From: Candidatus Methanomethylophilaceae archaeon | Lineage (GTDB): Archaea > Thermoplasmatota > Thermoplasmata > Methanomassiliicoccales > Methanomethylophilaceae | Reading direction: 5' to 3' | DNA length: 64,000 bases | NCBI GenBank assembly: GCA_050950505.1 | Contig: JBMNHS010000001.1 | Span: 1,108,824-1,172,823 of the forward strand | Shown here: positions 23,700-52,836 of the stretch, piece after piece | Layout of the letters: each line of letters starts with the position of its first letter | Position numbering within the stretch: position 1 is the stretch's first letter | Translations under genes and position numbers: made by a program | Notes under the pieces: model-generated | Seen by the model: only the letters and a program-made list of their open reading frames with translations | The model's database searches: none | What the model was told of the DNA's origin: nothing

Positions 23700-23701
23700 T
23701 T

Positions 23702-34698: not shown

Positions 34699-34760
34699 TA
34701 TCGGTCACAGGTTGCCATATAAATCTTTAAACGGATGTTTTTATCAAAACTCGTTAGAAA

Positions 34761-35369: not shown

Positions 35370-37497
35370 AGGTAGCAAGCCTGCCTATCAGTTCGCCTTC
35401 CTTCGCGGACCAGAACTTTTTGTCGCAGACGACGATGAGGTTCTTCTTTGCCCGGGACACTGCCGTGTTTATCACTTTCCGTCCGATGGAAGACTCGTCC
35501 ATGGTGCTTGTGAATCTCAGCTGAACTTCCCTTTCGACGGTACCGCTGTCGGCGACGCTGAGAATCACGGTATCCCACTCCCTTCCCTGGGACCCGTGGA
35601 CCGTGAGCACGTTTTCTTTAACTTCCGGTAAGGAATTTTTCAAAAGGTTGACTTGGGCGGTGTACGGAGTCAATATGATGTATTCGCCGTCCTCCATAGG
35701 ATTGTCGATGAGGAATTCTCCGATAACCTTCACTTCTTCGTAATTCGCCCGGGTTTCTCTTTTGCCCGCAACGGCATCCAAACATTCAATGGCCAAAGGA
35801 TATTGGGAAACCCCGGTTATCCCGTTCATGTAAATACAATCGTTCAGTATTTCGGCAAAGTTGTTTCCGAATCTGTGGGACACCGTGAGATCGGCCCTCC
35901 GGGTCAGTTCAAACACCGGGTCCAAATCTTCCAGATATGCGTTCTGCAACCATTCTATTCCTTTTGTGAAAAAAGATTCCGCGAACAATGCGGGAATATC
36001 CCACATGAATCCGTATCTCATGGAGTTGTCATTTTTTATGCCGTCTTCAAGACTGGAACGTTCAACGGCGCACACCGGAGGGAGTTGCAAATGGTCCCCC
36101 AGCATCGTGATGGGGACGTTTTCGGCAAACAGAGGAAGGATGTTGATGAGGTTGCAGTATCCGACTTCATCGACGAAGATATGATCGGCGTTCAACAGCA
36201 TCTTATCTCCGATTTCCGGTATCGGGGCGAATCTTCCCATGAACACCTGCGGCGTCATGGCAAGAACTTTGGCATCCTCCGCTTTCTTGGACGAACTGAA
36301 CCTTTCGAGCTCCTCCACTTCCTTCCTCAGAGGTTCCATCAGCTCATCGAGTTCTTCGTTGGTCATATTTTTGTACATTTCGATGTCCAAAGCGGCACGG
36401 GGTCTGTTGTACAGCGTATCGGCGATGATTTTTGCTTTTGTTTTCACATTGTATTCGTCAAAATCATCCGTCAGGTTTTTGTAGGATTCACTTTCCGACA
36501 AAACGGCTTTTATTTCCCGGATGTACGTCCGGACCTGTTTCATTACCCTCTTTTTGCCCGAATAATCGGCATCGGCGTATTCTTCGCCCATCAACACTTC
36601 GATTTCATCGAAGTGGGCTTTGAGAACATCGCATTTTCTCTCGAAGATGACTTCTTCGAGCATTCTCATGGCATTTATCTTCGAATGGAGTTTCCCCTGA
36701 ATCTCTTTGTTTTCGCAAACGTCGGGATAATCCTTTATGAATTCCGACGTGGCCATCCCCAATCTGAGAATGTCCTTCTTCACGTTTATGAAAATACCGT
36801 GGGGATCCTCTATTTCTATTATCTTCAGCAAACCTCTGAGAACCTGCTCCACCGCGTTGTTTGTTGGGGCGAATATTGCCACACGTTTCCCTTTTCTGAT
36901 AAGCTCCATCATCGCGGTTGCAAGAACAAATTGTGTCTTCCCCGTTCCGGGAGCACCCCATATGTAGGATAAATCGGACGAAAGGATTGTTTTGACGGCT
37001 TCCTTCTGTTCTTCCGAAGGCTCCATGCCTTCGGGGAATTTGATGGATTCAATGTCAATTTCCTTTTTGTCGGTTGATTCGGGAAGTTCGATTAGGTCTC
37101 CAAAATTTTTATAGTAATCTTTGGTCCGGTCAATCAGCCACTTCAGATCGACTATGAGATGTATTTCGTTCCCGGTTCTGCTCAGGGCTTCTTTGTTGAG
37201 AAGAGGCATGACATTTTCGCTCGGGAACAGAACAACGGTTGAAGACAGTTCATCGAATCTGTCAAAAGTTACGTCCGGTTCGTAAAATAACTTGTTTCCT
37301 ATGGTCAGTCCGAGACTGGAGGTATCGCGGACCTTCTTTCCCAGAGTCAGTATAACGTGTTCGCCGCAGATGTCGAAATCCTCGACCTTTGTCATTACCC
37401 TTCCCATGGATTCGTCCGAAAACTGATGAGCTTCGATGTAATCGAAATTCGATTCGCAGGATTCCACGCATATTTCCTTCAGTGATTTGTTCCCCAT
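35359..37497 (-). CDS. SF1 helicase (DNA2/NAM7/Upf1-like, AAA_11/AAA_12)
   Basis: EQKEAV, GAPGTGKT, APTNNAVE, VDEVG, GDHLQLPP, TVHGSQGREWD, NTAVSRAK. Confidence 0.88.
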   Translation of the reverse strand: MGNKSLKEICVESCESNFDYIEAHQFSDESMGRVMTKVEDFDICGEHVILTLGKKVRDTSSLGLTIGNKLFYEPDVTFDRFDELSSTVVLFPSENVMPLLNKEALSRTGNEIHLIVDLKWLIDRTKDYYKNFGDLIELPESTDKKEIDIESIKFPEGMEPSEEQKEAVKTILSSDLSYIWGAPGTGKTQFVLATAMMELIRKGKRVAIFAPTNNAVEQVLRGLLKIIEIEDPHGIFINVKKDILRLGMATSEFIKDYPDVCENKEIQGKLHSKINAMRMLEEVIFERKCDVLKAHFDEIEVLMGEEYADADYSGKKRVMKQVRTYIREIKAVLSESESYKNLTDDFDEYNVKTKAKIIADTLYNRPRAALDIEMYKNMTNEELDELMEPLRKEVEELERFSSSKKAEDAKVLAMTPQVFMGRFAPIPEIGDKMLLNADHIFVDEVGYCNLINILPLFAENVPITMLGDHLQLPPVCAVERSSLEDGIKNDNSMRYGFMWDIPALFAESFFTKGIEWLQNAYLEDLDPVFELTRRADLTVSHRFGNNFAEILNDCIYMNGITGVSQYPLAIECLDAVAGKRETRANYEEVKVIGEFLIDNPMEDGEYIILTPYTAQVNLLKNSLPEVKENVLTVHGSQGREWDTVILSVADSGTVEREVQLRFTSTMDESSIGRKVINTAVSRAKKNLIVVCDKKFWSAKEGELIGRLATYAE

Positions 37498-37546
37498 TTT
37501 TGCTTCCCCGTTTTTTGAATGATATTCTGATTTTCCCCCGTCAGAA

Positions 37547-40207
37547 TCAAACGTACCATTTCAGATGCTGCAGCGTTGCGTCATCGGGATACAGAGTTTC
37601 CAATCTGTTCAGAACCGTTTTTGCGAAATCTTTTCTGACATTCACATACTTGTTGAACAAGCGGATTAAACTGTGTTTGCATTCCGTATCTGTCTGTATC
37701 TTTAATATCTGAGCCTCGACTTCACCGTAAAGCTTCCTGGCCATCACGTCAGGCATTCTTTCCCCGTAAGCATTTTTTAAGAATAAATCCTCAAGATTCT
37801 CCCCTCTGTAATCGTCCGAGTACCGTTCATCGGCAATCATGGACTCGAAATATTTGGGATTTAATTCTCCTTCATAGGTTCCGTAATGATATCCTATACT
37901 TTCGGGCAGAACATTCCGTCTTATAGCGGAAGAATCGATTTCAACATCAATCTCTTTCGGAACGAGAAGGATTTTTCTGACGTCCTCCATTCCGAAATCA
38001 TCAACGGTTATCTGGTTAACGGTTATTTCTTCAAACCCTTCTTCGTCAAATTCTGCCACGCCGTCTTCGAAGGAAACGGTTGCGGAGTCCCCGTTTTCAT
38101 AATCGATTACGAGCCTGTACGAAACATTGCCGGCAACATTGTTAACGACTCTGACCTGTCCGTCGGCGATGATATAACCTGCGTTTACCGAAATGGGAAA
38201 TATCATTTTGCTCATTCCTTGGCCGACTCCCCAGTTATAATATACTAAAAATCGGGGACTGTTCACATAGGGTGCAATCTTTGTAATTTCAGTCAGATTG
38301 AAGGTATTGACACCGTTTTCAAAAACTCCTTTCAAAGGGGAAGCTTCCGACACAGATATGGACAGATATCCTCCGTCTTTGTCCGGAGTTTTCACGTGAA
38401 GCAGATCCGATTTCAGATCTTTGTAGTAATATTTCTTGGAATTGAAGATGAGCCAATCCTTTCGGTTGAAACTGTATCTGAACGAGGGTATGTCGACGGT
38501 TATGTCATATACTCTTCCTCGGCTGGATTCAAAGGGAAATGTGACCTTATCATCCCTCGCAGAATTGAATTCAATCGAATCGTTGACATTCCAGTTAATT
38601 ACCAGGCGACCGTTTTCTCCGAAGTAAACTTCCTTGTCAAATGTGCAAGTAAACCCGGGAATGTAGAGATATTTCAGCGACTTGTAACTTCGGTTAAATT
38701 TGAATTTGTACACTCCTTCCCCATAACCTCTCAAAATAGTTTCCAGGTCTAATTCCACATGAACTTTGTCGCAGAAAGACACTTTGTATCCTGGCGGCAG
38801 GGATTCGCGGCATTTTTTAAAATCGAGCTCCCTTATCTTTGATTCGTCCTTCCATACGGTAAGGCGCAGAAGATCCAATCGATCCTCTTCTGATTCCAAA
38901 CTTATCGAAGGATGACTGGGATAGAGACTCCATTCATCCCCGTTGGAATCCGTACAGAGTAGATTCAATTCATTGTCCGATATATCGAAGAAGTCTCCGA
39001 AAGGTTTGTGGATTAGGTATTCAATGCCGTTGATTTTGACGGAATCCCCGCGTTCAAGATAGAGCATGTTGACAATCAGATTATCATTCTCATGTAGCAC
39101 GGAAGTCTCCGTATCGATTGTCACTTCAGGTTTCCTTGCAACGTAATTAACTCCTCTGGACAGATTTCTTGACGATTTTCCATCATAGGAGAATATCAAA
39201 TAATCCACGTTTGAGGATTCGAATTTCCTGTTTCCTGCAGTGATTGTGAAATTATCAAAGGGGTTTAGTCCGTATTCGCGGAGGTTGACCCATCTGTGTT
39301 CGGTGAGGGTATACCCTTGGAACGTTCTTTCCCTGAGGCGTATCTTTTCAAAAACCTTTCCCTTCCCATCCTTTATATATGCGTAAGGTTCACCCTGTCC
39401 GTGGAACAGAATTTCAGGAATGAATATCCTGAAAATCATGGTTTTTATGTCGAAGTGCATACGGATTTCGCCTCCGATCTTTCCTTTACTGAGATTTCCC
39501 GCAAGCTTCTCCGCAATCCACTTCTTGAAAGAACTCTCATGGATTCCCAATGATGTGCCCTCGTCTTCAGGGGAGTTGATTCTGATAAGAATCTTCTTTG
39601 CCACCGGACCGAAAATTTTGAAATCGGAAAAGGCGAGTTTCATGGGAACTATCAAAGCTGTGTCGAAAATGCTCCCTTTGTCCTCATTGTTCTCAACTGA
39701 TGTTTCATCGGCGAGATTGTTCAGCGCCTCATCCATTCCGTCAAGACTTCCGTTCAGAACAGAATCGTATAACATATACATGAAATCAAACAGTTTCGAA
39801 CTGTATTCGTCAGGAATGAAGGCGTGCATCAGAATCATGTTCACATAGGTTCTTCCGCCTCTTTCAACCCAGGCCAAACCGTGATCTTCGATTGTTGATT
39901 TGAACAGGTCTGACAGTTTGGACTGTTTGGAAGTTGTGCGTTTTTCTATGTCGGAAAGTCTCCAGAAGTTGTCCCAGTACATTCCGTCGTTGTACTCGCG
40001 CTGACCGACATCCATCATGTAGTAACAGGACGAGAGGTTGTATTCCGCAACTCCTTCGAGAGCCTTTTCCAATATCGTCGCTGAATTGTCTCGTATGAAC
40101 TGACGTTCGGATGGTTCCAAGTTCAGTTCCGAAAGCAGCATTATGTCGTTTTCAATGATTTGGGATTTCATTTTTTCGTTTATTTTCCTTATTGTTGAAG
40201 GAATCAT
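37547..40207 (-). CDS. Large (~886 aa) hypothetical partner of the DUF1998 helicase (DruH-like by context)
   Basis: ATG 40207 overlaps the helicase TGA (ATGA) with a GGAGGTGA RBS. Helical N-terminus with YVNMILMHAFIP, then a beta-rich body. Confidence 0.6.
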   Translation of the reverse strand: MIPSTIRKINEKMKSQIIENDIMLLSELNLEPSERQFIRDNSATILEKALEGVAEYNLSSCYYMMDVGQREYNDGMYWDNFWRLSDIEKRTTSKQSKLSDLFKSTIEDHGLAWVERGGRTYVNMILMHAFIPDEYSSKLFDFMYMLYDSVLNGSLDGMDEALNNLADETSVENNEDKGSIFDTALIVPMKLAFSDFKIFGPVAKKILIRINSPEDEGTSLGIHESSFKKWIAEKLAGNLSKGKIGGEIRMHFDIKTMIFRIFIPEILFHGQGEPYAYIKDGKGKVFEKIRLRERTFQGYTLTEHRWVNLREYGLNPFDNFTITAGNRKFESSNVDYLIFSYDGKSSRNLSRGVNYVARKPEVTIDTETSVLHENDNLIVNMLYLERGDSVKINGIEYLIHKPFGDFFDISDNELNLLCTDSNGDEWSLYPSHPSISLESEEDRLDLLRLTVWKDESKIRELDFKKCRESLPPGYKVSFCDKVHVELDLETILRGYGEGVYKFKFNRSYKSLKYLYIPGFTCTFDKEVYFGENGRLVINWNVNDSIEFNSARDDKVTFPFESSRGRVYDITVDIPSFRYSFNRKDWLIFNSKKYYYKDLKSDLLHVKTPDKDGGYLSISVSEASPLKGVFENGVNTFNLTEITKIAPYVNSPRFLVYYNWGVGQGMSKMIFPISVNAGYIIADGQVRVVNNVAGNVSYRLVIDYENGDSATVSFEDGVAEFDEEGFEEITVNQITVDDFGMEDVRKILLVPKEIDVEIDSSAIRRNVLPESIGYHYGTYEGELNPKYFESMIADERYSDDYRGENLEDLFLKNAYGERMPDVMARKLYGEVEAQILKIQTDTECKHSLIRLFNKYVNVRKDFAKTVLNRLETLYPDDATLQHLKWYV

Positions 40208-43200
40208 AGTTTCACCTCCAGGGATTTCAGGTAAGCGATTGCTTTCGATCTGTCGAGAATGTCGTGGTACCTCTGGTTGGCGTAAGTTCTGAGGCAGGAG
40301 TAACAGGAATGGTTTCCGTCGGCTCCTCCGCAGGTACACTGTTCCATCATGTTCAACGAGAAGGTCAGAACCTTTTTCAGACTCTCTTCGTTGTGAAGTG
40401 CTTTCACATAGCCGGAACCTCCGGGCGTGTTGTCAAAGATAATGAATGTGTACTCATTATCAGTATTATCCAGACATCCGGAAACCTCTTTGTTGTCTAT
40501 TCCGAAGGTTCTGCAGAATCCTTCCTGCAAAGCCTGTAAAACCGAAACGGCGGTTTCAAAATCGGTGCAGGGGGTAGTAATGAACCGTAACATCACTATG
40601 TCGGTTTTGAATATATGGCCGAGACTGAGGGGCCTCAGGAATTTGTTCTTGCATTCAACACCTCTTTCATTCTCGTGCTTTGTATCCCGCACGCCTTCGT
40701 TCTGAATTTTTCCGAATCCGCAAACTTCACAAATCATGAACTTGGTATCGTTGATTGCGGTCAAACGTCCGTTTTCACGGGAAATCAGTTGCAATGATTC
40801 ATTATCCACTGTGATTATGTCTGTTTCCCTGGAGTACTTTTCACTCAGCGATATGTCACTTGAATAGGACTTGACGGGTTTTTCAGACACGTTGGTTTTG
40901 TTGTCATTAGGATTGTACATAAACCCGAATTCAGGCTTGATGAATCTCTCCTCGCCATGTAGCTTCTCACCGCAAGAACAGACATCCAAATCCCCCTCGT
41001 CATCGATGAAATTGTCCAGTTTGACAGAAATCTTTCTGCAGTGTCCGCATTTTCTGAATTTGTAGATAGGCCAGCCCCTTCCGTACATTTTCTTCACAAA
41101 TTTACTGGTCAGTTTGTTACCGTCCACCATAACTTCGGAACCGGGGGCGTAATCCGATATTCCGATCAGCGCATTTCTTGACAGATTGTATTTTTTAGGA
41201 TACGAACTGACCGGAACCAATTCCACTGTATCTACAGGGAAACCGTATTTCGGAATTATATTGTGTGAGGATAAGAAATCGAGAGTTTCGGTATGTTCAA
41301 AAGTTGAAAGCACTCTGTCTGCTTTGCTTGCCGATCTCAGCAGTTTTCTTCTATCTCCGGAGGATATCTTTGAATCGCTCTGTTGTATGCGCGTGAAGGA
41401 TTCTTCCATATGTTCGCAATCTTCCTTAAATTCCTCCACTGCCATTCTCATCCGTCCGTATTTTTCATTGAACAGATGTTCCGTCCATGCGAAGTTGTTC
41501 GGATCCAATTTGGTATCGTCTTCAGCCAGAGGTGAATCCAAAGGGTTCGGCAATACTTTACAGAGGTATTTTTTCAAGGTTTCCGGTTCCGATTCCATAT
41601 ATCTTTGGAATTCTCCGTAAGAATCGATGAATTCAGGTGTTTTTTTAGGGTAGGAACTGTAACCATTCTCAACCCAGAAATAACGCAGAGCGGAAGCAAA
41701 CATGTGCCTGATTGCAATGTTGGGGTTGTCCGCTTTTATTTTCGGTACAGGAATCTGTCCGTTTATCATGTCCAAGGGATTATTGAAGAATGACACATCG
41801 TGAGACATTTCCCTGCAGAACGTAACCGCGAAAGCAGATGAGTCCGGACCTCTTCCGGCTCTTCCCGCCCTCTGAATATAGTTGGCCGAAGAAGGAGGAA
41901 CATTCCTCATAAGAACCGTGTTGAGATCCCCTATATCCACACCCATCTCGAAAGTGGTCGAACAGCTCAAAGCGTTCAGTCTGCCTTCTTTGAAAGAGTT
42001 CTGTGTCTCCCTTGCTGCGTCTATGTTCAACTGCGCGGTGTGTTCCGCGATTCTGAGATGTTTCAACGGGGATTTGATTACCTGTCTAGTGTAGTGGTCC
42101 AATCCGCTTATATCCAAGGTGCCGTTCTTTTCCTCGCGAATAATTCTCATTACGTCTGTTTCGAATCTCTCAAGTGTCGATGTGACGCATCTGGGACAGA
42201 TGCCTTTGACCGAGAACGGGAAATTCTTTTTACAGGAACTGCACCTGTAATAATGTTCGGGAATTATTACGTTCAGACTGTCCAGATTCAAGAAACTGCA
42301 GGATTCTGAATTGTCGTATTCCAAAAAGTGATTGAAAGTCGAGAGTACGAATCTTTCAACTAAATCCTCATTGCCATCAAAAACACTGAGAAGGTAAGAG
42401 TTCATTCTTTTGTTCAGCAAGGGTTTTATGCGATTTGTATTCTTAGTGTCCGTGGTGTACCCGTAACGGTATTCGTACTTCTTCAGAGATCCGTCGGTAT
42501 TACACACAGCCCTGTTATCTCGTATGTGTTTCAACACCGAATTTACAAGATTGTAGAACGTGTCTGTATCCAATCCGAAAGCATTCTTTTCGAACGGAAC
42601 GAAGTCGTTGCCATTAGTTATTCTTCCGGCTTCAAAACGTAAAAATCCCATATATTCCATTGAACGGTACGAGTTGTTGCAGGAACATTCCCTTCTCAAT
42701 CCTTCGACCAGATCGTTCTTTGGAAAGTGCAGACCGTTGGTGTTGGAAATGTTACCCAACAAAGTCACAGCTTCTTCGTAAGGAATGCCTTTCATGAACA
42801 AGTCCGTATAGTTCTTCATCGCTTCGAAAATCACACGTTTCATGAGTATTCCGCGATAGGTGTCCGAAAGATAAGCGGAAAAGAAGGCGGCAGACTGCCT
42901 GCTGTCCGAGAACGAAAGGAATCTGTCGTCCTTTCCTTTGATCAGATCCTCATAAAGAGAAGACGCAATAACAGAGGTGGAAGCATCCTGTCCCAAATAC
43001 AGCTGTCTGAGAAGACCCCGTTTTGTGTTGGAGTTCTTGCATACCGGACATACAGACACTTTCTCTTTGTCACTTATTTTTATGATTTTATTCAGATAAA
43101 TTTCACCGCAATCACAGGAACGGTCACCTTCAACATAGGAAATCATTCCGCATTTGCTGCAGAGAAGTCTCGACTCTTCTTCATCAAAATTCGTCGGTTC

Positions 43201-44781
43201 GCCCTCGAATTCCCCCTCGGCCAACACGTAAGATTTGTATCCTCTGTAATCTTCAGAATTCCTTGCGACCTGTGTGAATTTTCCATTTTTCTCATCACCC
43301 AAAAGATAAGTCGCCTTACAGTTGTAACATGTGGAAATCTGGAATACTTTGTAGCTGTCGGAACCTACAAAATGTTCTTTTTTCGGTTTTATGAACAGAC
43401 TGTAGTCCGGCGCCAATGTCACGTAAGCTCCGTCAAGTCCCTTGACAAATAGATGATACTTCGAATCGAAAAGTTTCATCCCATTTTTCATGGCGGAAGT
43501 GGACGCGGAAATTATGGAGATGAGATCGTCGGAACTCAGGGAAAGTTCTTCCGAAAGCTCCTCAACCGTCTTTGGTCTTTCATCCAGACTGTCGGTGATT
43601 CTGTAAATAACCGGATCGTGACTTATTATGTCATACAAACGTTCTCTGACATTGAGCGTTTTGTTGTCATCCGCTTCGTCAAGAATCCCTTTTAACGAAG
43701 ATTCAACATCTTTGACATCCGGATTATTGACTATATCAGAAACTGACCTGTAGAAGTCCATATCCCGGAATGTTAGTTCGGCGGGCCTTTCGAAAGGTAT
43801 TCTGTTGGATCGTATTACGTCGCTTTCTTCAAAGGAAGAACTGCATAGTTCAGAAGCGAAGGCCGCAACTTCTTTATTTTGTTCTTCAGAACCCAATGTC
43901 GCACTTGTGAGAATGAACCTTATGCAGTCATTGTCCAACGCAGTCGTCAATCTTCTCAGCAACATGGCCACTTCAGAGCCTTTTGCTCCGTTGTATGTGT
44001 GAGCCTCATCGAGTACGATGTATTTCCATCCGTTATCCCCCTGAACTCCGAACAAGGAGTTGTTTTCGGGCTTTATCAGAAGGTGTTCCAACATGGCATA
44101 GTTGGTAATCAGAATGTCAGGCGGACTTTTCCTGAAACGTTCACGGGATATTACTTCGTTTCGAGGAATCTTCTCCGGCTCATTTAGGCTTTCTCTTGCC
44201 TGGGCTTCGGTGTCCTTGGTTTCCCCTGTGAAAGAACCAAAAGTGATGTCATTGTCGGATTCCCCTTTTTCAAAAACACCAATCATTTCCCTCAGTGTGT
44301 TAATTTGATCGTTTGCAAGAGCGTTCAATGGGTAAAGCAGCATAGCTTTCACACCGGATGATTTTCCGTTTTTGGATTCCAGCTTCTTTACTTTCATTAT
44401 ATGATTGAGAATCGGAATAAGAAAACTGAAGGTCTTTCCGGAACCGGTTCCCGTTGAGACGACTATATTCCTGTCTTCAACGACGGTTTTTCTTATCGCA
44501 GATTCCTGGTGATCGAAAAGCTTGTTGTTAAACTTGGGGTAATCCAAATCATTGAACCCTTGTTCCAACAGACCTTCATCCACAAATTCCTTCACGGTTT
44601 TTGACTTCGGATAGTTGTGAGTTATCTGCAGGTACGGCCCTTTGGATATTGCGTCATTCGAGAAGATTGCTTTCTCCAAATCTTTGTTATAATTCTGATT
44701 ATTGGTTCCGAAAGTGGCAAGAATATACTTTCTAAACGTTTCGGTTATGTTTTCTGATGCTATTAACGGATTGAATGTCAT
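40204..44781 (-). CDS. Large DEAD/DEAH helicase with Zn motifs and C-terminal DUF1998 (DruE-like)
   Basis: KGPY, HQ, TGTGSGKT, YPLNALANDQ, PPDILITNY.MLE, LDEAH, SATL, FSDSRQ.AA, EMGVDIG, QRAGRAGR, PKYGFP, D..PGGSG and C.C...CY.CL. Start MTFNP with a GGAGG RBS. Confidence 0.88.
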   Translation of the reverse strand: MTFNPLIASENITETFRKYILATFGTNNQNYNKDLEKAIFSNDAISKGPYLQITHNYPKSKTVKEFVDEGLLEQGFNDLDYPKFNNKLFDHQESAIRKTVVEDRNIVVSTGTGSGKTFSFLIPILNHIMKVKKLESKNGKSSGVKAMLLYPLNALANDQINTLREMIGVFEKGESDNDITFGSFTGETKDTEAQARESLNEPEKIPRNEVISRERFRKSPPDILITNYAMLEHLLIKPENNSLFGVQGDNGWKYIVLDEAHTYNGAKGSEVAMLLRRLTTALDNDCIRFILTSATLGSEEQNKEVAAFASELCSSSFEESDVIRSNRIPFERPAELTFRDMDFYRSVSDIVNNPDVKDVESSLKGILDEADDNKTLNVRERLYDIISHDPVIYRITDSLDERPKTVEELSEELSLSSDDLISIISASTSAMKNGMKLFDSKYHLFVKGLDGAYVTLAPDYSLFIKPKKEHFVGSDSYKVFQISTCYNCKATYLLGDEKNGKFTQVARNSEDYRGYKSYVLAEGEFEGEPTNFDEEESRLLCSKCGMISYVEGDRSCDCGEIYLNKIIKISDKEKVSVCPVCKNSNTKRGLLRQLYLGQDASTSVIASSLYEDLIKGKDDRFLSFSDSRQSAAFFSAYLSDTYRGILMKRVIFEAMKNYTDLFMKGIPYEEAVTLLGNISNTNGLHFPKNDLVEGLRRECSCNNSYRSMEYMGFLRFEAGRITNGNDFVPFEKNAFGLDTDTFYNLVNSVLKHIRDNRAVCNTDGSLKKYEYRYGYTTDTKNTNRIKPLLNKRMNSYLLSVFDGNEDLVERFVLSTFNHFLEYDNSESCSFLNLDSLNVIIPEHYYRCSSCKKNFPFSVKGICPRCVTSTLERFETDVMRIIREEKNGTLDISGLDHYTRQVIKSPLKHLRIAEHTAQLNIDAARETQNSFKEGRLNALSCSTTFEMGVDIGDLNTVLMRNVPPSSANYIQRAGRAGRGPDSSAFAVTFCREMSHDVSFFNNPLDMINGQIPVPKIKADNPNIAIRHMFASALRYFWVENGYSSYPKKTPEFIDSYGEFQRYMESEPETLKKYLCKVLPNPLDSPLAEDDTKLDPNNFAWTEHLFNEKYGRMRMAVEEFKEDCEHMEESFTRIQQSDSKISSGDRRKLLRSASKADRVLSTFEHTETLDFLSSHNIIPKYGFPVDTVELVPVSSYPKKYNLSRNALIGISDYAPGSEVMVDGNKLTSKFVKKMYGRGWPIYKFRKCGHCRKISVKLDNFIDDEGDLDVCSCGEKLHGEERFIKPEFGFMYNPNDNKTNVSEKPVKSYSSDISLSEKYSRETDIITVDNESLQLISRENGRLTAINDTKFMICEVCGFGKIQNEGVRDTKHENERGVECKNKFLRPLSLGHIFKTDIVMLRFITTPCTDFETAVSVLQALQEGFCRTFGIDNKEVSGCLDNTDNEYTFIIFDNTPGGSGYVKALHNEESLKKVLTFSLNMMEQCTCGGADGNHSCYSCLRTYANQRYHDILDRSKAIAYLKSLEVKL

Positions 44782-44932
44782 ATTTTTCTCCTCCTTTTTT
44801 ATGATTTTTTTGATAGTGTTCACTGCTTCTCTCATAATTTTAACGAAAAACCGGATTTCCCGTTCCGATCGGATGCTTCAATCCGATTGTCCGGGCATAC
44901 ACTTCCTGTTGTGTACGAACGGTTTCAACGAC

Positions 44933-45688
44933 TCATGGTTTGAACGCCCTGAGGTACTTCAGAACCTCGGCGTCATCATCCGTCCACTCCGGCGTAAAGC
45001 CCTGTTTGAGATATTCGTCATACCATTCGGAGCAGTATTTCATCGGCTCCGCCATATCCCGTTTCTTTTTCAGAATGAAGTGGGTGTTTTCTTCGTTGGG
45101 AACCCACTGTTTGGGTCTGGCATAGTCCTTTTCTTCAAGGAATCCGACAACGAACACGATCTCGTCCACTCCGGAAAGTTCGGCATACAGCGAAGCCTGA
45201 TACATGTACTGGTCGGACAGATTGGAGTAACCTCCTTCCTCATCCTCCCAGGACTCTTTGGAACCGGAAGTTTTGATTTCCAGAATCGCCCTTCTGGCCC
45301 CGTCTGCGTGTATGTACCCGTCAACCATCCCTCCGAAGAGCCTGTCCTGATGGAAATGATCGTATCCGCATTCTTTGCCTTCAACGGGTTCTTCGATCAC
45401 CACGGAACCGTCCAACCCCAGAAGATCGGAAATTTTATCGATGTTCTCCGTCACGTATTTGCGAATAACGGGTTCGATTATGTTTCCGGCTTCCATGTAC
45501 TTGTTGCTGCGGTCCCCGGGGTACAGCCCGGCCATCTCACAGGCTACTTTGAAGGGAGTCGCAAACTCGCCGACCCCCATTATGGATGCCACCCGGGTTC
45601 CCGTGATTTTCTTCAGCTTGTACGTATCGAAATAGACGGTTTTGTATTCGTCGTCTATGTCTATTATTGCGCGTCTTCCGTCAAACAT
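44933..45688 (-). CDS. YqaJ/lambda-exonuclease family nuclease
   Basis: ITGT...IMG...F.TP, G..IEP.I, GMVDG, LEIKT, Y.YQ..LY. Confidence 0.85.
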   Translation of the reverse strand: MFDGRRAIIDIDDEYKTVYFDTYKLKKITGTRVASIMGVGEFATPFKVACEMAGLYPGDRSNKYMEAGNIIEPVIRKYVTENIDKISDLLGLDGSVVIEEPVEGKECGYDHFHQDRLFGGMVDGYIHADGARRAILEIKTSGSKESWEDEEGGYSNLSDQYMYQASLYAELSGVDEIVFVVGFLEEKDYARPKQWVPNEENTHFILKKKRDMAEPMKYCSEWYDEYLKQGFTPEWTDDDAEVLKYLRAFKP

Positions 45689-45698
45689 GGTTGTTACC

Positions 45699-47300
45699 TC
45701 AGATACTTACTTCCAGCGTGTTTCCGTTCACCATTCTCCAGTTGAATTTTCCGAACCTGTTCCCCAGAACTTCGATTCTGTTCAGATGGGGGACGTGGAT
45801 GATGCCGTTGCGGCATTCGGCAACGCCGTATGCGTCAGGGACGAATCTCATCACTGTTCCGTCGGCGTTTATCTTGACGGTGTATGTCCCTTCATCAATA
45901 AGAGAGCATTTGAACTCGTCAGCGGATATGCGTATCACCGATCCGGACAGGGGCTCGAGTCTTGATTGGATTGTCGATTTTCTGGTTTCACAGAGAAGAT
46001 TGTTGATTTCGACGCGAGCCTCCGTCAACTTGCTGAGAGCTATCCTATGCTCGGATTTCACGGAATCCAATTCCCTGCGAAGGTCGTTTACCGTTTCATC
46101 ATCGTGTTCCGGAATGTCAGATATTTCCGATATCCTGTTTGAGTTCATCTTCACACGGAGCATCTCGGCTTCATTCCTGTACCTGTTCAATTCGACTTCG
46201 AGCTCGTCGATTTTGGCTTCGTAATGATCGTGTCCGGTTCTGTTTGCCGTCCTGAGTTCTTCGACTCTCCGTTCCATCTCGCTGTTCTTTGCTTTTACGA
46301 GATCCTCCAGAGATTCGTTTTTCTCCGTGAGCCGATTTATCTCGTCAGTGAGATGTTTGCATCTCTCGGCTTGGAATTCGGAATCATTTTTGTACCCGTT
46401 GAGATCCTTATTCAGATTTTCTATTACACCTTCGTAGTAACTGGAATCGGTCATGTTTTTGGTTGTGAGCTCTTCCGTTTTCTGTTCCATCTCGGCCTTC
46501 TCCCTTTTGATTTGTTCTTCCAGTAACCCGTTCCTCTCCGTGAGTCTGGTTATTTTATCTTTGAGAATTTGGACTTCTTTTCCGTCACTTCCGTTCTCAA
46601 TCTCATGAATTCTGTCGGTCAAATCTTCTATTTCGGCAAGATTTTGCTTTTCCTTCCTGCTGTATTCGGCGGTGAGTTCGGAAAGAACCGTCTTGTGTTC
46701 GTCGACAAGTTTCTTTTCCGATTTCCTGAATTCTTTTTCAAGTTCCTTGCGAAGGGTTTTCTCTCCGTCGATTTTGTTTCCGATTTGGGATTTGAGTCTT
46801 TCGCATTCTCTCTTGAGATTTTTGAAATCAGCATTAATTTCATCAAACCTTGCGACATCTTCGCTGAGATCCAGATGCTTCAGAATTTCTTCAGGACGGT
46901 TTTTCCACATGAATTCCGCGAGGGTTTCCGTTTTCCCGTTCAGGCCCACGATGTCTTCGGAATTTATCCTGTACAGAGGCTGTGCGATTACGCTGTTGTT
47001 TGCTTCCGTATCCGCGACACAGACCCAAAGCTCGTTTTCATTGACGGGAGTTTCCGTCACCCGGTTGGATCCTATTCGGATTCCGTCGAAACGGCTCACA
47101 AGTTCTCCGTTCTCATCCTTTGAAACCAACAGTACTTTCATCATTCCCAGAGGCGCTCCGTTTTTCGGATTGATGCCGTTCGAACCGAGGAACATTTTAT
47201 GATCCTTGGTTAGATTGCCGTCCGATGCCGCCTTGTTGAGTGCTCCTTTGTTGCGGGTTACGGTTCTTCCCCTGTTGTTGGGAATTCGGGTTTTTCTCAT
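45699..47300 (-). CDS. Long coiled-coil protein with small globular N- and C-terminal domains
   Basis: About 300 aa of E/K-rich heptads flanked by beta-rich domains. The start overlaps the NYN gene stop (ATGA). Confidence 0.75.
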   Translation of the reverse strand: MRKTRIPNNRGRTVTRNKGALNKAASDGNLTKDHKMFLGSNGINPKNGAPLGMMKVLLVSKDENGELVSRFDGIRIGSNRVTETPVNENELWVCVADTEANNSVIAQPLYRINSEDIVGLNGKTETLAEFMWKNRPEEILKHLDLSEDVARFDEINADFKNLKRECERLKSQIGNKIDGEKTLRKELEKEFRKSEKKLVDEHKTVLSELTAEYSRKEKQNLAEIEDLTDRIHEIENGSDGKEVQILKDKITRLTERNGLLEEQIKREKAEMEQKTEELTTKNMTDSSYYEGVIENLNKDLNGYKNDSEFQAERCKHLTDEINRLTEKNESLEDLVKAKNSEMERRVEELRTANRTGHDHYEAKIDELEVELNRYRNEAEMLRVKMNSNRISEISDIPEHDDETVNDLRRELDSVKSEHRIALSKLTEARVEINNLLCETRKSTIQSRLEPLSGSVIRISADEFKCSLIDEGTYTVKINADGTVMRFVPDAYGVAECRNGIIHVPHLNRIEVLGNRFGKFNWRMVNGNTLEVSI

Positions 47301-47932
47301 TCTGCGGCCCCCCTGTTGTTTTCTGTTTCAGCAAGAATATTGTCCAAAGATCTGAACCCGTCATCGTTGCCGAATTCTATCATTGATTCGGGATATACGA
47401 ATTCGCGGGCGTTATAGTCGTTGGGCGGGTAGTAATCGATCATAGGTATTCCGGACAGATTTGTGAATATGTTCGCTATATCGATCATCTCATCGGAGAT
47501 GTCATCTTTGAAAGCTGCGACCTCAACTTTCTTTCCGAGATTCTGTACTGCCCGTATGGCCGGGATAAAGTCCCGGTCTCCGCTAATCAGAATAGCTACG
47601 TCATAATGATCGTTCACGGCATGCATCAACATTTCAACAGCTATGGAAACGTCGACTTCCTTCTGTTTATCGTTGGCGAAATGCCCCTTGATCACTCTGT
47701 ACCCCATATCGGAAAAATGATCTCTTTCTTCCTTATTATTATTGAAATAAAGTTTGGTGTCGAAAACCATCGCACCGGCTACAGTCCTGTCATCGACAAG
47801 TGTGTTTGCCAGTTCCAAATGGTCGATCTTACAGTTTTCCAGACCCTTATGACCTTCCAATCCGTACTTTACGTTGGCGAGATCCAAGAAGATCATCACC
47901 CGGTCATCCTTGTTTGTTTTTATTATACGCAT
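47297..47932 (-). CDS. NYN-domain (LabA/DUF88, PIN-like) nuclease
   Basis: IFLDLAN, QKEVDVSIAVEM, ILISGDRDFIP, GKKVEV. Confidence 0.88.
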   Translation of the reverse strand: MRIIKTNKDDRVMIFLDLANVKYGLEGHKGLENCKIDHLELANTLVDDRTVAGAMVFDTKLYFNNNKEERDHFSDMGYRVIKGHFANDKQKEVDVSIAVEMLMHAVNDHYDVAILISGDRDFIPAIRAVQNLGKKVEVAAFKDDISDEMIDIANIFTNLSGIPMIDYYPPNDYNAREFVYPESMIEFGNDDGFRSLDNILAETENNRGAAE

Positions 47933-47992
47933 ATTATCCCCATTCTGCCCTTTCGGGCAATTATTTCATTGCATTATATCTATAAATATACA

Positions 47993-48057
47993 TATAACGT
48001 TATAGTTGTTATCAAAGTTATAAATGTTATATGATTTTCTTTTGTTACAAAAGTTAT
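47993..48057. promoter_or_regulatory. Divergent promoter region with a 9-bp-phased GTTAT direct-repeat array and a 12-bp palindrome
   Basis: GTTAT at 47999, 48008, 48017, 48026 and 48053, GTTAC at 48044, and TATAACGTTATA at 47993-48004. Confidence 0.7.
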
Positions 48058-48084
48058 TAAAAATCACAATGACTACCATTGAAC

Positions 48085-49059
48085 ATGGGGGAGAGTAAAA
48101 CCGACGGAAAATCCGTGAAACCTATCGAGAGAATAATCATTTCCTGCGTTACTTTCGATACCGTGAAAATAACCGATCCCATAGAATTCTACGATGCCAC
48201 AAAGGCATATTTGGTACACTACTTCAAAAAAGAGAACCGTTACGAATTGGTTTACCAAAGAGTCCTCGAAATGTTGGATGAAAAATTTGATTTGACTCTG
48301 ATGGATTACGATTTGGAAAAGGGAAGATGCGAGAACAAAGTTCACGAAGACAATGAAAAGACTCCCGTTACTGTTTCGAAAGACGGTAAAATCAATAAAA
48401 TTGTCAAGGAACTGTCCATTGTGGACGTTAACCAGGTTGTTTACGACTTCCAGGAAATGCTCAAAACAATGTTCTCGATCATGGAGTGTGAAAGAAAGGA
48501 CGAAGACGATCTCAAGAATCCCATTTACGTCAACATTTCCGCCGGAACCTCAGAGTTTTCCGCGGCTGCTTTGATTGCATCCATGATGTTTGAAAACGTC
48601 GAGGTTTTTTCCGTGAACGCGTCGGAATACACTGTGAGCGACAACTCTCTTTACAGCGATGAAAACGGTAAATTCATAGGATTGGCGAAATCCGTCAAAG
48701 AACCTTATTCCATCAAAAGTTTCTCCATTCCGCGGCCTGACAGGAGACTTGTTCTTTCACTGAGAGTTTATCACGAAAACGGGTATCCGACCGCCGCAAA
48801 GGCCATAGAAGCGTTGAAAGCGGCCACCTATTCCGTTGATGGCAAGACATTCAATCTTTGGGACTGGGAAGACACCCCGCAAGAAGAAAAATTCAAAGTG
48901 CAGGATGAAAAACTGACCGCAAAAGACAAAATGAAATTCCAAAGACAGTTCATCGACAAGTGGATGGCCGAAGACTTCCTCATAAGAGTCGGGAGAGGCT
49001 CCTACAAACTGTCTTCCCACGGTGAATTTACCGTTGAAACATACTACACCACGGAATGA
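48085..49059 (+). CDS. CARF-like (DUF6293/Csa3-like) domain + C-terminal winged-helix regulator
   Basis: Rossmann-like start IIISCVTFD, DFQEML, IYVNISAGT (CARF N.S/TGG-type loop), and a wHTH-like end GRGSYKLSSHG. Confidence 0.65.
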   Translation: MGESKTDGKSVKPIERIIISCVTFDTVKITDPIEFYDATKAYLVHYFKKENRYELVYQRVLEMLDEKFDLTLMDYDLEKGRCENKVHEDNEKTPVTVSKDGKINKIVKELSIVDVNQVVYDFQEMLKTMFSIMECERKDEDDLKNPIYVNISAGTSEFSAAALIASMMFENVEVFSVNASEYTVSDNSLYSDENGKFIGLAKSVKEPYSIKSFSIPRPDRRLVLSLRVYHENGYPTAAKAIEALKAATYSVDGKTFNLWDWEDTPQEEKFKVQDEKLTAKDKMKFQRQFIDKWMAEDFLIRVGRGSYKLSSHGEFTVETYYTTE

Positions 49060-49107
49060 AGACAGTGTGACGTGTTCCGGAAGCAACCGCGGTAAAATAT
49101 CAAAAGC

Positions 49108-49132
49108 CGCAACGATATCGCAGACCGTTGCG
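49108..49132. terminator. Hairpin between convergent genes
   Basis: CGCAACG...CGTTGCG followed by a T-rich tract. Confidence 0.45.
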
Positions 49133-49157
49133 ATTTTTATAGTTTTGATTTGTGTTC

Positions 49158-49721
49158 TCAGGTATTCCTGAACTTCAGACCTGCGGTCTTTGCCCTGGCC
49201 ATCAGATCCGCGTCATCCCTGGCATGTTTTGTATGACCTTCATCGGAAAACAGCAACCTGTCCGTGACCTCGAACCCTAGGTTCTCAAGGGTGGTGCTCA
49301 TACGATCCGCAACCTTTTCCGCTATGTCCATGGTCCGGGAGCAGGTTACCACGACGACGGCTTTCTTCCCTTTGGCAATGTTATGACTGAAATCTTCGTT
49401 GTAGAACGAATACATACGGTCTTCCAACACTTTGTATTGGGATGCCACTTCGTTGAAATAAACCGGAGTGGAGACAATCACCGCGTCGGAATCCCTGATG
49501 GCATCAAGGGTTTCCTGAATCTCGTCGTTGTGAATGCACCTGCCGGTTTTCTTGCATTCATCGCATGCTGAACAGCCGCGCAATGCACGGAATTTGTCCA
49601 ATCTGAAAAATTCAATGAGGTTTGTGGACAAACCCATTGCGCCGTCCGTCACAGCACTCACGATGGTATCCGAATTTCCACCGATCACAGGACTCGCCAC
49701 GACAGCAACGATTTTGCTCAT
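49158..49721 (-). CDS. Iron-sulfur flavoprotein / flavodoxin family
   Basis: SP..GNS, GCSACDECKKTGRC, STPVYF, K...DR. Confidence 0.85.
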   Translation of the reverse strand: MSKIVAVVASPVIGGNSDTIVSAVTDGAMGLSTNLIEFFRLDKFRALRGCSACDECKKTGRCIHNDEIQETLDAIRDSDAVIVSTPVYFNEVASQYKVLEDRMYSFYNEDFSHNIAKGKKAVVVVTCSRTMDIAEKVADRMSTTLENLGFEVTDRLLFSDEGHTKHARDDADLMARAKTAGLKFRNT

Positions 49722-49784
49722 GGCTATTTCGTAGCACCCCGTAATATATCATATTTTTTGTTCGCCCTATTATTTTATTGGAGA

Positions 49785-50339
49785 TTATTCTTTTTTCCCC
49801 GTCGCCCTGCGAGGCACGGTTTCATATCCGTCATCCAAAGGCGTTATCTGCAGGTGGGTGTAGAAGGGATCTTCGTATTTCGATCCCATGTAATCGTCGA
49901 TGTCCAGATTCATGTTTCTTAAAATCCTTATCAGAGTGTTCCTCATATGCAGCACGTCTTCCCTGGGAATTCCCACAAAGTAACTGTTGTTCAGTTCCGT
50001 CGTGTTCTCCATTATCATGGAAGCAAGCTCTCTCCCGGATTCCGTGAGGAAAATAGAATATTTTCTGCTCTTCGGAGTTTCCCGGTCGTCATAAACGAAT
50101 CCCTTGTCCCTGAGGACTTTGATGACTCTGTTGGTGTTGGCGGCATCGAGATCCAAAAACTTGGACAGGCTTATCAGAGTCTGCCCGTCCTGCAGCTTAA
50201 GAGCGATGAGATAAACCGCGTGAGCGCTTGTCAAATCGTAATCCACAAGCATCTCATTCATATTTTTTCTCATCTGGAAGCTCATCCTGTCGAAGAAAGC
50301 CGGTAAGAACGAGTTCCAATACACATCCTCTCTGTCCAT
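49785..50339 (-). CDS. MarR-family transcriptional regulator
   Basis: LT......L, LS..L.LD.AN..R.I..L..KGFV, LTESG. Confidence 0.85.
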   Translation of the reverse strand: MDREDVYWNSFLPAFFDRMSFQMRKNMNEMLVDYDLTSAHAVYLIALKLQDGQTLISLSKFLDLDAANTNRVIKVLRDKGFVYDDRETPKSRKYSIFLTESGRELASMIMENTTELNNSYFVGIPREDVLHMRNTLIRILRNMNLDIDDYMGSKYEDPFYTHLQITPLDDGYETVPRRATGKKE

Positions 50340-50487
50340 ATTGCAGTGTTATCGTATGCCGTTAATAAAAACTTGATTGATGATAGGACCGAACGGGACG
50401 GTGTGAAAGGAGGAAAAGACACCCGGGAGCCGCCGATATGTGGCAGCGGTGTCGTATCCGCCCCGTTCAACCCCTTAAAATGTTTGT

Positions 50488-50517
50488 TCCGTCCGGACGG
50501 ACGACCATCCGGACGGA
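50488..50517 (-). terminator. Hairpin after mttC
   Basis: TCCGTCCGGA...TCCGGACGGA, a 10-bp stem just downstream of the mttC stop. Confidence 0.6.
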
Positions 50518-51213: not shown

Positions 51214-52707
51214 TCACTGGTTGTTTTGCTTGAATGCCTCATCGGCCTTCCTGACGACTTCTTCCATCGCCTTCAGTTTGTCTTCTTCAATGGGTTTCAC
51301 TACGTGGTTGGCCATGACGTCCTCGACGATTTCGTGAGCGACTTCGATGGCGTTCTTGGAACCGTTGTCAATCCACTCGTTGAGCATCATGCGGTTGAGA
51401 ATTGTGGGGTTGGATGCACTTTCGAAGTGTTCCATGGTGGTGGGGTGTCCGAGGAAATCCCTTCCGACTCCCACTTCTTTGATTGAATCGACAGCAAGGG
51501 TCTCGTCGGTGACGGGAAGTCCCTGGAGAACCTTCATGTTCATTTTGATGATTTCATTGTCCATTACCAACTGTTCCATGGAGAACGTCTGTCCGAGCTC
51601 AAGCATACCGGATCCGTAGATGGAGTTCGCACCGGCCATAGCGGGGAGAATGGATGTGATTGTCTTCTCATGCGCAGCCTGTGCGTCAGGTACTTTGGCA
51701 TCGGTCTACATACCGGCAACGAAGACGGGCAGACCGTAGTACTGACCGAGCTTTGCGACTGCCGCGCTGATTATGGCGAGTTCGGGGGATCCGACGGGAG
51801 CGGTACCATTTCTGAGGTCGAAAGTGGTGGTGGAGCTTCCGTAAAGGACAGGGGCTCCGGGGTTCGCAATCTGACTGAGCACGATACCCGAAAGAACTTC
51901 CGCGTTGTGAGTAACGAGGGTTCCGGTCAGGTGAATGGGGGATGAACCTCCGGCCATTGCCATGCTCAGAACGTTGACGGGGATGCCGTATCTTGCACCC
52001 TTGACGATAACCTGAACTGCGTTGTGGCTGAGTTCCAGGGGGCTTGTGGGGCAGACAAGCATGGACATGATCGGCCTGTTGCGGGCCATTTCTTCATCGC
52101 CGCCGTAGTAGGCTTTGAGCATTTCCCAATAGAAGTCCACATTTTCCGCAACGGGGTCGATGTGGTGGAAGTGCTTTGAAGTGTTCTTCAGCGAAACAAG
52201 CATTTCATGCACGTCGCCGGCACCGATGCCCGCCCAGTCCCTGGCAGAAACCGCCAGGGAGAAGTAGCTGATGTTTTCCGCCCAGTCAACGAGCTTTGCA
52301 CAGTTTGCAAGGTCGGCTTCGGTGGAGTCCCTGGTGTTGAATTTGCCGTCACCGAGGTAATCGCACATCTGAATGCCGGTACCGAAACAGGTAAAGTGAA
52401 CACGTCCCTTGTGCATCTGTTCAACGGTGTGTCTGTCTTCCCTTCCGTACAAGTAGAATTTCTTGGGAACGGTGGCAAGAGCCTGATTGATCACCTTGAC
52501 GGGAATCTTTACCATTTTTGTTTCATAGTTTACGTCACAGCCGGCTTCCTCGAAGATTTTAAGTCCTTCATCGTCGGAAACCTGAACGCCGTAAGTGGAC
52601 AGAACGTCCTTGGTTGCGTAATCGATCTCACGGAGATCGTCTTCAGTGAACAGGTCCAATTTGACTCCGTTCATCTTTACCCTTCCGGGGTATTCGTTGG
52701 TTCTCAT
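51214..52707 (-). CDS. mttB: Trimethylamine:corrinoid methyltransferase, pyrrolysine-containing (in-frame TAG at 51706-51708, codon 334)
   Basis: The two track ORFs join in frame: ...[27 protein letters not shown]...[12 protein letters not shown], 497 aa in total. CPTSPL and GSPE are MttB motifs. Confidence 0.95.
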
Positions 52708-52836
52708 ATCCTTCCTCCAATCAGCATCCATCATGGATGGAGCCTGTTTTCGAACGAGTTGTATCCCCCAGAGATGAATCGGTGACATTCAGCGGGAGAT
52801 ACGCGTCGGTCGCTGAGTCCGTTCAATTCAATGTAT

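Follow-up and report, generated by a model that had tools for sequence, protein, structure and literature searches.

The DNA analysed here (the window: 64,000 nucleotides of contig JBMNHS010000001.1) is part of the 1.33-Mb genome, 99.6% complete, of a Candidatus Methanomethylophilaceae archaeon, and its named related records are metagenome-assembled genomes (MAGs) filed as Methanomethylophilaceae or as 'Methanomassiliicoccaceae archaeon'. At positions 44933-49059 of the window, a gene for a CARF-like regulator stands head-to-head with three minus-strand genes, which encode an NYN nuclease, a coiled-coil protein and a YqaJ exonuclease. The original prediction made for this stretch described the three as tightly coupled and regarded them as one system combining an RNase with a DNase. 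The coupling was borne out by the open reading frames (ORFs): the stop codon of the NYN gene and the start codon of the coiled-coil gene share an ATGA overlap, and the stop of the latter lies 10 bp from the start of YqaJ. As regards the system, we found that the conserved unit is the NYN gene together with the coiled-coil gene.

The NYN gene (47297-47932, minus strand) codes for a protein of 211 amino acids (aa) with a LabA-like NYN domain of the PIN-like kind, a predicted RNase (Pfam NYN, PF01936: 9.3e-21, 75.3 bits against a cut-off of 24.2). The NYN profile also matched the solved LabA-like structure 2qip (1.1e-15), and the residues D17, N20, D94, S117, G118, D119 and D121 were invariant among the 16 sequences compared. 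The catalytic residues are likewise kept in YqaJ (D123, E137 and K139, invariant among 23 sequences), which agrees with the earlier assignment of both proteins as nucleases. Judging from its sequence, NYN would be an active RNase and is proposed as the effector of the module. The PADLOC model HEC-09 matched no more of it than residues 85-140 (E-value 2.5e-17, corresponding to positions 98-155 of the 203 in the profile). According to the available part of the preprint describing HEC-09 (10.1101/2024.01.29.577857), this protein, like the PADLOC 'NYN' model, shares with ours a LabA/MARF1-like NYN core, conserved aspartates and defence-gene surroundings. HEC-09 differs in being a single gene with an N-terminal helix-turn-helix-like domain, whereas here NYN always comes with a coiled-coil partner.

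The partner gene (45699-47300, minus strand), the start of which overlaps the NYN stop, encodes 533 aa, and its family matches were weak and of the coiled-coil type only. A relationship to SMC, LmuB or ZorA was considered and rejected because these matches reflect coiled-coil composition only. A precomputed Pfam label, PF27241.1, is attached to the 533-aa protein; the label is absent from the Pfam copy used, and a Pfam family entry for the partner may already exist. A homologue search with the single protein gave 6 matches and a narrow coiled-coil alignment retrieved 5 same-genus records only from genome contigs; the wider spread of the family emerged only with profiles. When the partner profile, built from 25 family members, was compared with 1.84 billion representative proteins, 400 clusters were found at E<=1e-3 and 313 at E<=1e-10. 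Most of these clusters are 270-340 aa long and were matched over their full length; the partner in the window is a long-coil variant. Whole-protein lengths of the relatives examined range from 199 to 539 aa, and no relatives of 30-127 aa were found. The ESM Atlas gave no match at or above 0.9, and its structure matches had TM values of at most 0.22.

Three parts of the partner can be told apart. The N-terminal domain (residues 30-150; 46851-47213) was modelled by AlphaFold2 with a pLDDT of 78 as a five-stranded barrel plus helices. VIA-align matched the model to the cold-shock domain of RNase R (Z 6.9, rmsd 2.3, 59 residues aligned), the RNA-binding domain of Rho (Z 6.2), the TRAM domain of RumA (Z 6.0), the S1 domain of NusA (Z 5.9) and the exosome subunit Rrp4, all with Z below 8, a level which is evidence for the fold alone. 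Foldseek pointed to eIF1A/TRAM (E 1.5e-3 to 1e-2). On the strength of the model, the domain appears to be an OB fold of the RNA-binding kind, for which a nucleic-acid ligand may be presumed. It is followed by a coiled-coil segment of variable length (45948-46850), to which the large indels of the alignment are confined, and by the most conserved part of the protein, an all-beta C-terminal domain (residues 452-533; 45702-45947; pLDDT 95). The best VIA-align match of this C-domain was MraZ (1n0e_A; Z 5.0, rmsd 3.0, 77 of 82 residues aligned), with the runner-up at Z 3.2, and Foldseek returned nothing under E 0.28. The modelled likeness to MraZ is taken as a weak lead and not as a finding.

To follow the pair through related genomes, NYN, the regulator and DruE were searched for in 120 genomes of the family, and the profiles and YqaJ in 47 sampled family genomes and 353 genomes of other families in the phylum. 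NYN is present in 57 of the 120 family genomes and in 12 of 19 genera, the window's own genome being counted, often in 2-3 copies, and its relatives across the family are 38-47% identical. The partner profile matched 28 of the 47 sampled family genomes and 4 of the 353 others. NYN and the coiled-coil gene are neighbours, abutting or overlapping, in 7/7 loci of the same genus. Outside it, the ORF beside NYN carries the N- and/or C-domain of the partner in 18 of 20 NYN loci, and at the remaining two the partner profile matched immediately next to NYN (G370:C2:30020-30904; G022:C2:46556-47191, the latter match being split in two). The arrangement extends to three other Thermoplasmatota families, where NYN precedes the partner gene with a 4-bp overlap in all four loci.

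Eight genomes of the genus have the complete set of four genes, whereas searches of G014 (98% complete) and G008 (95% complete) yielded none of the four, a joint presence and absence that fits gain or loss of a block. Compared with the syntenic genome G015, the coiled-coil protein of the window is 35% identical, NYN 55% and the CARF protein 53%, against 85% for YqaJ and 78% for the flanking helicase. The coiled-coil gene of G015, the closest syntenic genome (L011, G015:C3, ~9250-10695), contains one in-frame TAG, for which a pseudogene, read-through or, the organism being a methylotrophic methanogen, a pyrrolysine codon are possible explanations. Another type of module was seen at three loci (L114, L117 and L120, in G020, G321 and G195). 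There a divergent protein of ~300 aa takes the place of the CARF gene; it has a coil and the same beta C-domain, without an OB domain. In the NYN tree (FastTree), the sequences of these three loci form a clade of their own, and those of the CARF-linked cassettes of the window's genus and of L103, a locus of G443 from another genus, form one clade with an SH-like support of 98.

The pair can also be read as a type II toxin-antitoxin-like addiction module, in which NYN would be the toxin and the coiled-coil protein a large antitoxin, perhaps also a promoter repressor by means of its AbrB/MraZ-like C-domain; the module would then stabilise genomic islands rather than serve defence as such. The tight translational coupling of NYN and its partner, the several copies per small genome and the patchy spread are in its favour. 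So are the best match of the C-domain, MraZ, a double SpoVT/AbrB-type protein, and the coil plus C-domain protein that occupies the divergent regulator position in the second module type. A PIN toxin with an AbrB-type antitoxin is the VapBC pattern, and VapBC modules resemble the pair in coupling a PIN-like nuclease to a partner, which may here have a related barrel domain, and in being multicopy and patchy. The gene order, however, is reversed here: the partner lies downstream of the putative toxin, exceeds it in size, and has an OB domain and a long coil. We know of no precedent for an OB domain in an antitoxin. Moreover, the MraZ match at Z 5.0 is weak and is not seconded by Foldseek, and an antitoxin regulating its own promoter would leave no need for a CARF regulator besides. 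We consider this explanation unlikely.

The regulator gene (48079-49059, plus strand; alternative start at the ATG at 48085) encodes 326 aa with a CARF3-type sensor domain and a C-terminal DNA-binding part, probably a winged helix. It had been called CARF-like, and the profiles agree: PADLOC CARF3 (PDLC01878) matched with 4e-54 (residues 104-324 against profile positions 57-268 of 268, the C-terminus included), 15 further CARF/Csx1/CasR models of PADLOC matched as well, and Pfam HFX_2341_N gave 8.8e-10 (39.5 bits against a cut-off of 30). The match of the C-terminus to the winged-helix protein Sso10a was weak (E 0.57, positions 256-287). Sequence searches of the PDB gave nothing significant for the regulator, and it has no PHROGs family.

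Between the regulator and the NYN gene lies a divergent promoter/operator spacer (47933-48078), and its description as AT-rich with a phased repeat array proved accurate: it is 146 bp long, has 25% G+C and holds GTTAT repeats (ATAAC on the NYN strand) with a 9-bp period at ~47996-48060. The motif ATAACNNNNATAAC has three overlapping matches in the spacer and one elsewhere in the window; 0.02 matches were expected per shuffle, and none of 100 shuffles reached four. The same phased TATAAC array with a 9-bp period is present in 5/5 other same-genus spacers examined. The spacers of L103 and L122 have GTTAC/TTAC repeats of the same period, and similar TTAC(A) runs ~9 bp apart stand upstream of several paralogous CARF genes. 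This arrangement makes the phased TATAAC array the probable binding site of the regulator. Just upstream of the ribosome-binding site and start codon of NYN lies a short G+C hairpin, GCCC-GAAA-GGGC (47946-47959, minus strand). It recurs before NYN in the CARF-linked cassettes of the genus (L011-L017) and at L103 and L122 with its position and pairing kept and its sequence varied (GCCC/GGGC, GTGCG/CGCAC, TGCGCA repeats), and it was not evident in NYN loci without CARF.

The linkage of the pair to CARF is clade-specific, being found in the window's genus, in G443 (L103) and in G337 (L122). The regulator family itself is wider, with representatives in 83 of the 120 family genomes and up to 6 matches in each; the genome of the window has one. 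For a survey of its company, 20 further regulator loci from other genomes were taken and one member of each neighbour cluster was scanned. At four of the 20, the regulator paralogue stands divergently to a protein of one particular cluster, and the member of this cluster that was scanned proved to be Cas12a, with Cas4 next to it downstream. These loci are L127, L129, L130 and L134 (G337, G457, G017 and G021), and the scanned Cas12a has all the Cpf1 Pfam domains, which suggests that type V-A CRISPR-Cas loci of Methanomethylophilaceae are under CARF-type control. Other paralogues adjoin Schlafen-group-3 helicases, an AAA_21 ATPase and a 905-aa PD-(D/E)xK protein.

In its architecture, the regulator resembles the Csa3-type factors with CARF and winged-helix domains: it has a CARF-class N-terminal sensor and a C-terminal part that probably binds DNA, and it is divergent from its presumed targets. 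As with Csa3-like regulators, it is placed beside defence genes, with a repeat array as a candidate operator in the shared spacer and paralogues by Cas12a-Cas4. Csa3 binds cyclic tetra-adenylate, as stated in the available portions of PMC8699464 and PMC8844856. The regulator of the window differs in matching PADLOC CARF3 and Pfam HFX_2341_N without a match in the PDB, and its cargo is the NYN pair and not cas genes. Its genome also differs in that searches with the Csm1/Cmr2 models found no Cas10 in it, whereas the same searches were positive in control genomes; Cas1 is encoded elsewhere in the genome. Since Cas10 was not found, a type III CRISPR source of the regulator's ligand is unlikely.

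The third minus-strand gene (44933-45688) codes for a YqaJ or lambda-exonuclease-type PD-(D/E)xK nuclease of 251 aa (Pfam YqaJ 3e-8, 34.5 bits against a cut-off of 22). It resembles lambda exonuclease and RecE in its Pfam match, in its match to the RecE-like PHROG (2.9e-24) and in the conserved D...ExK residues. Its best NCBIfam matches carry Mycoplasma names (MAGa7180 family nuclease, 7e-40; MPN551 family, 1.1e-35), both below the cut-offs, and a PDB sequence search gave nothing significant. The absence of an annealase beside the gene, pointed out in the original prediction, was upheld: general family scans of 26 window proteins showed no RecT, ERF or Bet-type Pfam family, and PHROG found none among the neighbours. 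Unlike its phage counterparts, this YqaJ gene stands alone on the chromosome throughout the family and is passed on vertically; without an annealase nearby and with such inheritance, it was rejected as a marker of a prophage recombination module.

The distribution of YqaJ is different from that of the pair. It was found in 43 of the 47 sampled family genomes and in none of the 353 genomes of other families in the phylum. Of 20 YqaJ loci examined in other genera, comprising 18 main copies and 2 paralogues, none has a relative of NYN, the coiled-coil protein or CARF within ~10 kb. The neighbours scanned there were a pseudouridine synthase, an ACT-domain protein, transporters, a methyltransferase, a DbpA-type RNA helicase, a dehydrogenase and MsrAB. 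A longer paralogue (~330 aa, 43-46% identical) exists in two genera. The maximum-likelihood tree of 23 YqaJ sequences follows the genera, with 10 changes for 11 labels, the minimum possible, against a mean of 16.5 after shuffling, and the window's genus is monophyletic in it (99/97). From the distribution, the neighbours and the tree, we conclude that YqaJ is a vertically inherited gene of the family which abuts the module in this genus only. The view of the trio as one system was thus not upheld, and the expected co-occurrence of the four genes holds in part: the order CARF (divergent), NYN, coiled-coil, YqaJ is the same in 7/7 same-genus genomes holding the coiled-coil gene, but YqaJ stands apart from the other three in other genera.

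A narrower form of the original model would limit the system to this genus, with NYN, the coiled-coil protein and YqaJ acting as a combined RNase and DNase under CARF control after the recruitment of YqaJ from the core genes. The regular spacing on one strand is what this form has in its favour, since the coiled-coil gene and YqaJ are separated by a gap of 0-12 bp or overlap in the window and in 7/7 same-genus cassettes, in two chromosomal contexts. In addition, the four genes are jointly present or missing within the genus, and a terminator-like site follows YqaJ, while the consensus scan found none between the coiled-coil gene and YqaJ. YqaJ is probably co-transcribed with the pair in this genus. 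As a part of the system, however, it would have to be reconciled with its family-wide presence, the lack of linkage outside the genus, its genus-wise tree and its slow change (85% identity compared with 35-55% for the module), and NYN pairs occur without YqaJ in at least 24 loci. Such a genus-restricted trio appears quite improbable to us.

Directly downstream of YqaJ, at a distance of 97 bp and co-oriented with it, lies the gene of a 1543-aa DruE helicase (40204-44835, minus strand) with DEAD, Helicase_C and MZB (DUF1998-type) domains (PADLOC DruE1 3.7e-169). Its end is overlapped by the gene of a 930-aa protein (37547-40339, minus strand), for which Pfam, PADLOC, PHROG and NCBIfam gave no match. 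The position and orientation of this DUF1998 helicase module had been correctly described, but a link to the cassette did not hold, as DruE and the 930-aa gene are absent from the vicinity of the cassette in all seven same-genus genomes. In G015, which has the same context, the next genes after YqaJ are those of the SF1 helicase and the transglutaminase-like protein, which in the window lie beyond the DruE pair. This gene order indicates that the Druantia-like pair either was inserted in the genome of the window or has been deleted from G015, and that it lies outside the cassette. The gap between YqaJ and DruE holds a terminator-like hairpin with a T-run (44849-44870, minus strand), found by the consensus scan, which gave 6 sites in the region against 4.9 expected and is weak alone. 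At other DruE loci of the family, a large protein (795-844 aa) follows DruE in 4 of 5, three of them with tblastn similarity to the 930-aa protein, and the two genes may form a Druantia-like variant with an unnamed partner after DruE.

One locus bears on a possible role of NYN and the coiled-coil protein as accessory genes of such a Druantia-like system, with DruE and the 930-aa protein as its basis. In G443, of another genus and without YqaJ at this site, CARF and NYN are followed by a coiled-coil gene (199 aa, lacking the OB domain), DruE and a protein like the 930-aa one, and its NYN belongs to the same clade as that of the window. The DruE proteins of the two genomes are 39% identical by tblastn and 42% in a second comparison. 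Nevertheless, DruE occurs in only 7 of 120 other family genomes, and NYN adjoins it upstream in just one, G443, of the five other DruE loci examined. It is missing from 7/7 same-genus cassettes and from at least 22 further NYN pairs, and the DruE of the window is closer to the non-adjacent DruE of G009 (49%) than to that of G443. The terminator-like site between YqaJ and DruE adds to this. While the neighbouring gene is clearly DruE, there was no match to DruA-D, DruH or DruM/F/G; no Dru model of PADLOC other than DruE matched NYN, the coiled-coil protein, YqaJ or the 930-aa protein at E<=0.1, and the genes of the module do not travel with DruE. An accessory role in Druantia is hardly probable at all.

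The wider setting agrees with the presumed connection to defence. The module lies at the edge of a low-G+C defence island (18.7-49 kb), which it closes and whose other members, recognised by family scans including PADLOC, are PbeA, PbeC, DndC, a DndD/PbeC-type protein, a split type IV restriction enzyme, an MkoA-like SF1 helicase, DruE and the 930-aa protein. At 18752-32080, PbeA (3.6e-211) and PbeC adjoin DndC and the DndD/PbeC-type protein, and the PADLOC family mREase_IV (type IV, methyl-directed) is split over two neighbouring ORFs, 30959-32080 and 29237-30949. Past 49.1 kb, the genes are ordinary: FMN reductase, MarR, a corrinoid protein, MttB, a Mg-chelatase-like pair and an ammonium transporter. 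The ORF of the trimethylamine methyltransferase MttB (51706-52788, minus strand) spans profile positions 24-337 of 500 only and may run on past its in-frame stop, as pyrrolysine-containing methyltransferases do.

Metagenomes of digesters, landfills, bioreactors, wastewater and manure, from ~15 studies in all, have contigs near-identical to positions 34000-50500 (mostly >=99%), with the DruE insertion included; strains of this type are widespread in engineered anaerobic systems. In a run that is filed as RNA, contigs partly cover the coiled-coil gene, the YqaJ/DruE junction (44791-45180), DruE and the SF1 helicase, with the regulator uncovered; the library may contain DNA and was not used to judge expression or operon structure. 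A contig joint skipping 37352-47649 is considered unreliable, its short side being just 22 letters long.

Taken as a whole, we read the locus as a CARF-controlled RNase module that is accessory and probably serves defence or abortive infection, and we put the probability of this reading at roughly one half. The module would be a two-gene unit of an NYN RNase and a translationally coupled partner with an OB N-domain for nucleic-acid binding, a presumably dimerising coil and a compact beta C-domain. The CARF3/winged-helix regulator would occupy the 9-bp-phased TATAAC array of the 146-bp spacer and switch the operon, probably itself too, in response to a small nucleotide-type ligand that is unlikely to come from type III CRISPR. 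NYN would then cut RNA as the effector, in an abortive-infection or toxin-like manner. The partner would bind NYN and either restrain the RNase or aim it, through the OB domain, at RNA or single-stranded nucleic acid signalling invasion. A three-chain complex prediction (N-domain, C-domain and NYN) scored 0.69 against 0.64 for a control with the first chain replaced, and was used neither for nor against binding.

In favour of an accessory module of the defence type are the patchy, multicopy and fast-diverging nature of the pair, the intact residues of the effector and the company of defence genes. The conservation of the pair also speaks for it, as do, for the regulator, the CARF3 match, the conserved non-random repeats, the clade formed by the CARF-linked NYN sequences and the defence genes beside several paralogues. 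The families near NYN pairs include mREase_IV, DruE, RT_UG26, Hhe, PDC-S01, PDC-S37, HEC-01A and methyltransferases. In numbers, 113 neighbours of 20 NYN pairs (three genes on each side) matched 99 PADLOC families at E<=1e-15, compared with 13 for 108 neighbours of YqaJ at 18 control loci in other genera; this comparison counts families and not proteins, is inflated by several sub-models per protein, was made with crude ORF calls, and serves as an indication rather than a statistic.

This limit of the counts is one of several points that weigh against a defensive module. The YqaJ control also matched two strong families, PDC-S37 and Hhe. The CARF fold and the winged helix of the regulator are predicted from sequence profiles, the fold matches of the partner go no higher than a modest Z of 6.9 (N-domain) or 5.0 (C-domain), and some CARF paralogues adjoin genes unrelated to defence (FAD oxidoreductase, P-type ATPase, Sel1-repeat protein). 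The partner has no PHROGs family, and the narrow alignment found no relatives of its family in viral contigs, which leaves no lead to the trigger. Within the genus, YqaJ always accompanies the module and was not found without it, so that a recruited role is possible. HEC-09, which among the relatives by profile is the only one to have been tested, gave no protection from any of the phages used, according to the available part of its description (10.1101/2024.01.29.577857).

Furthermore, several NYN pairs adjoin housekeeping genes, among them an isoleucyl/valyl-type tRNA synthetase, a CN hydrolase and Mre11-Rad50 orthologues. It could accordingly be asked whether the pair is a housekeeping one for RNA processing or the processing of DNA ends, placed near defence genes by accident. 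The loci beside Mre11-Rad50 or SbcCD-like genes, a metallophosphoesterase or tRNA synthetase genes would suit such a role, as would the resemblance of the OB domain to RNase R, Rho and exosome subunits. It is at odds with the failure to find NYN in half of the family genomes, near-complete ones included, its multiple copies elsewhere at different chromosomal sites, its fast divergence and its rarity outside the family (4 of 353 genomes). We regard a housekeeping function as very improbable. At L117 (G321:C1), the NYN pair is directly upstream of orthologues of the housekeeping Mre11-Rad50 (G000 C2:86399-89868), and at L122 it is upstream of an SbcCD-like pair; this proximity to Mre11-Rad50/SbcCD may be due to chance.

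Returning to the reading of an accessory RNase module under CARF control, its closeness to described systems was considered. The CoCoNuT systems (coiled-coil nuclease tandems; eLife 2024), in the available part of PMC11090510, resemble the module in combining long coiled coils with RNA-binding domains of the OB type (cold-shock) and with nucleases whose predicted target is RNA, and the parts of PMC11090510 and PMC12458937 at hand link them to Druantia-type helicases. In contrast to CoCoNuT and McrBC, none of the four genes of the window matched an McrB GTPase or McrC in Pfam or PADLOC. The term NYN is absent from the main text of PMC11090510, as are NYN and YqaJ from that of PMC12458937. Literature searches found no published description of the pair of NYN and an OB/coiled-coil protein, although the supplementary tables of PMC12458937 and of the HEC preprint could list such neighbourhoods. 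They also found no CARF regulator family heading both NYN pairs and Cas12a loci in genomes without Cas10. CARF/winged-helix regulators, NYN candidates in defence islands and pairs of a nuclease with a sensor are known kinds, and the pairing seen here together with its CARF control is apparently new.

A bolder and more tentative proposal, which we think rather doubtful, is that the regulators form a CARF alarm regulon without a cyclic-oligoadenylate synthase. One CARF3/winged-helix family acting on 9-bp-phased TTAC-type operators would switch on type V-A CRISPR-Cas, Schlafen-type helicases, Abi-type ATPases and the NYN pair. The pair itself would be a new system of immunity or abortive infection, made up of two genes and directed at RNA: on sensing foreign nucleic acid, the OB/coiled-coil protein would release the activity of NYN.

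The results correct the reading of the neighbourhood, where close spacing and a common strand had made a vertically inherited exonuclease and an inserted Druantia-like pair resemble parts of one system. If the interpretation is true, a two-gene RNase module with an unusual OB/coiled-coil partner, represented by at least 400 clusters, would join the short list of archaeal defence and toxin systems. It would also mean that CARF regulators act without a type III CRISPR signal source, and it would give a pointer to the regulation of immunity in the methanogens of guts and digesters, including those that bear Cas12a.

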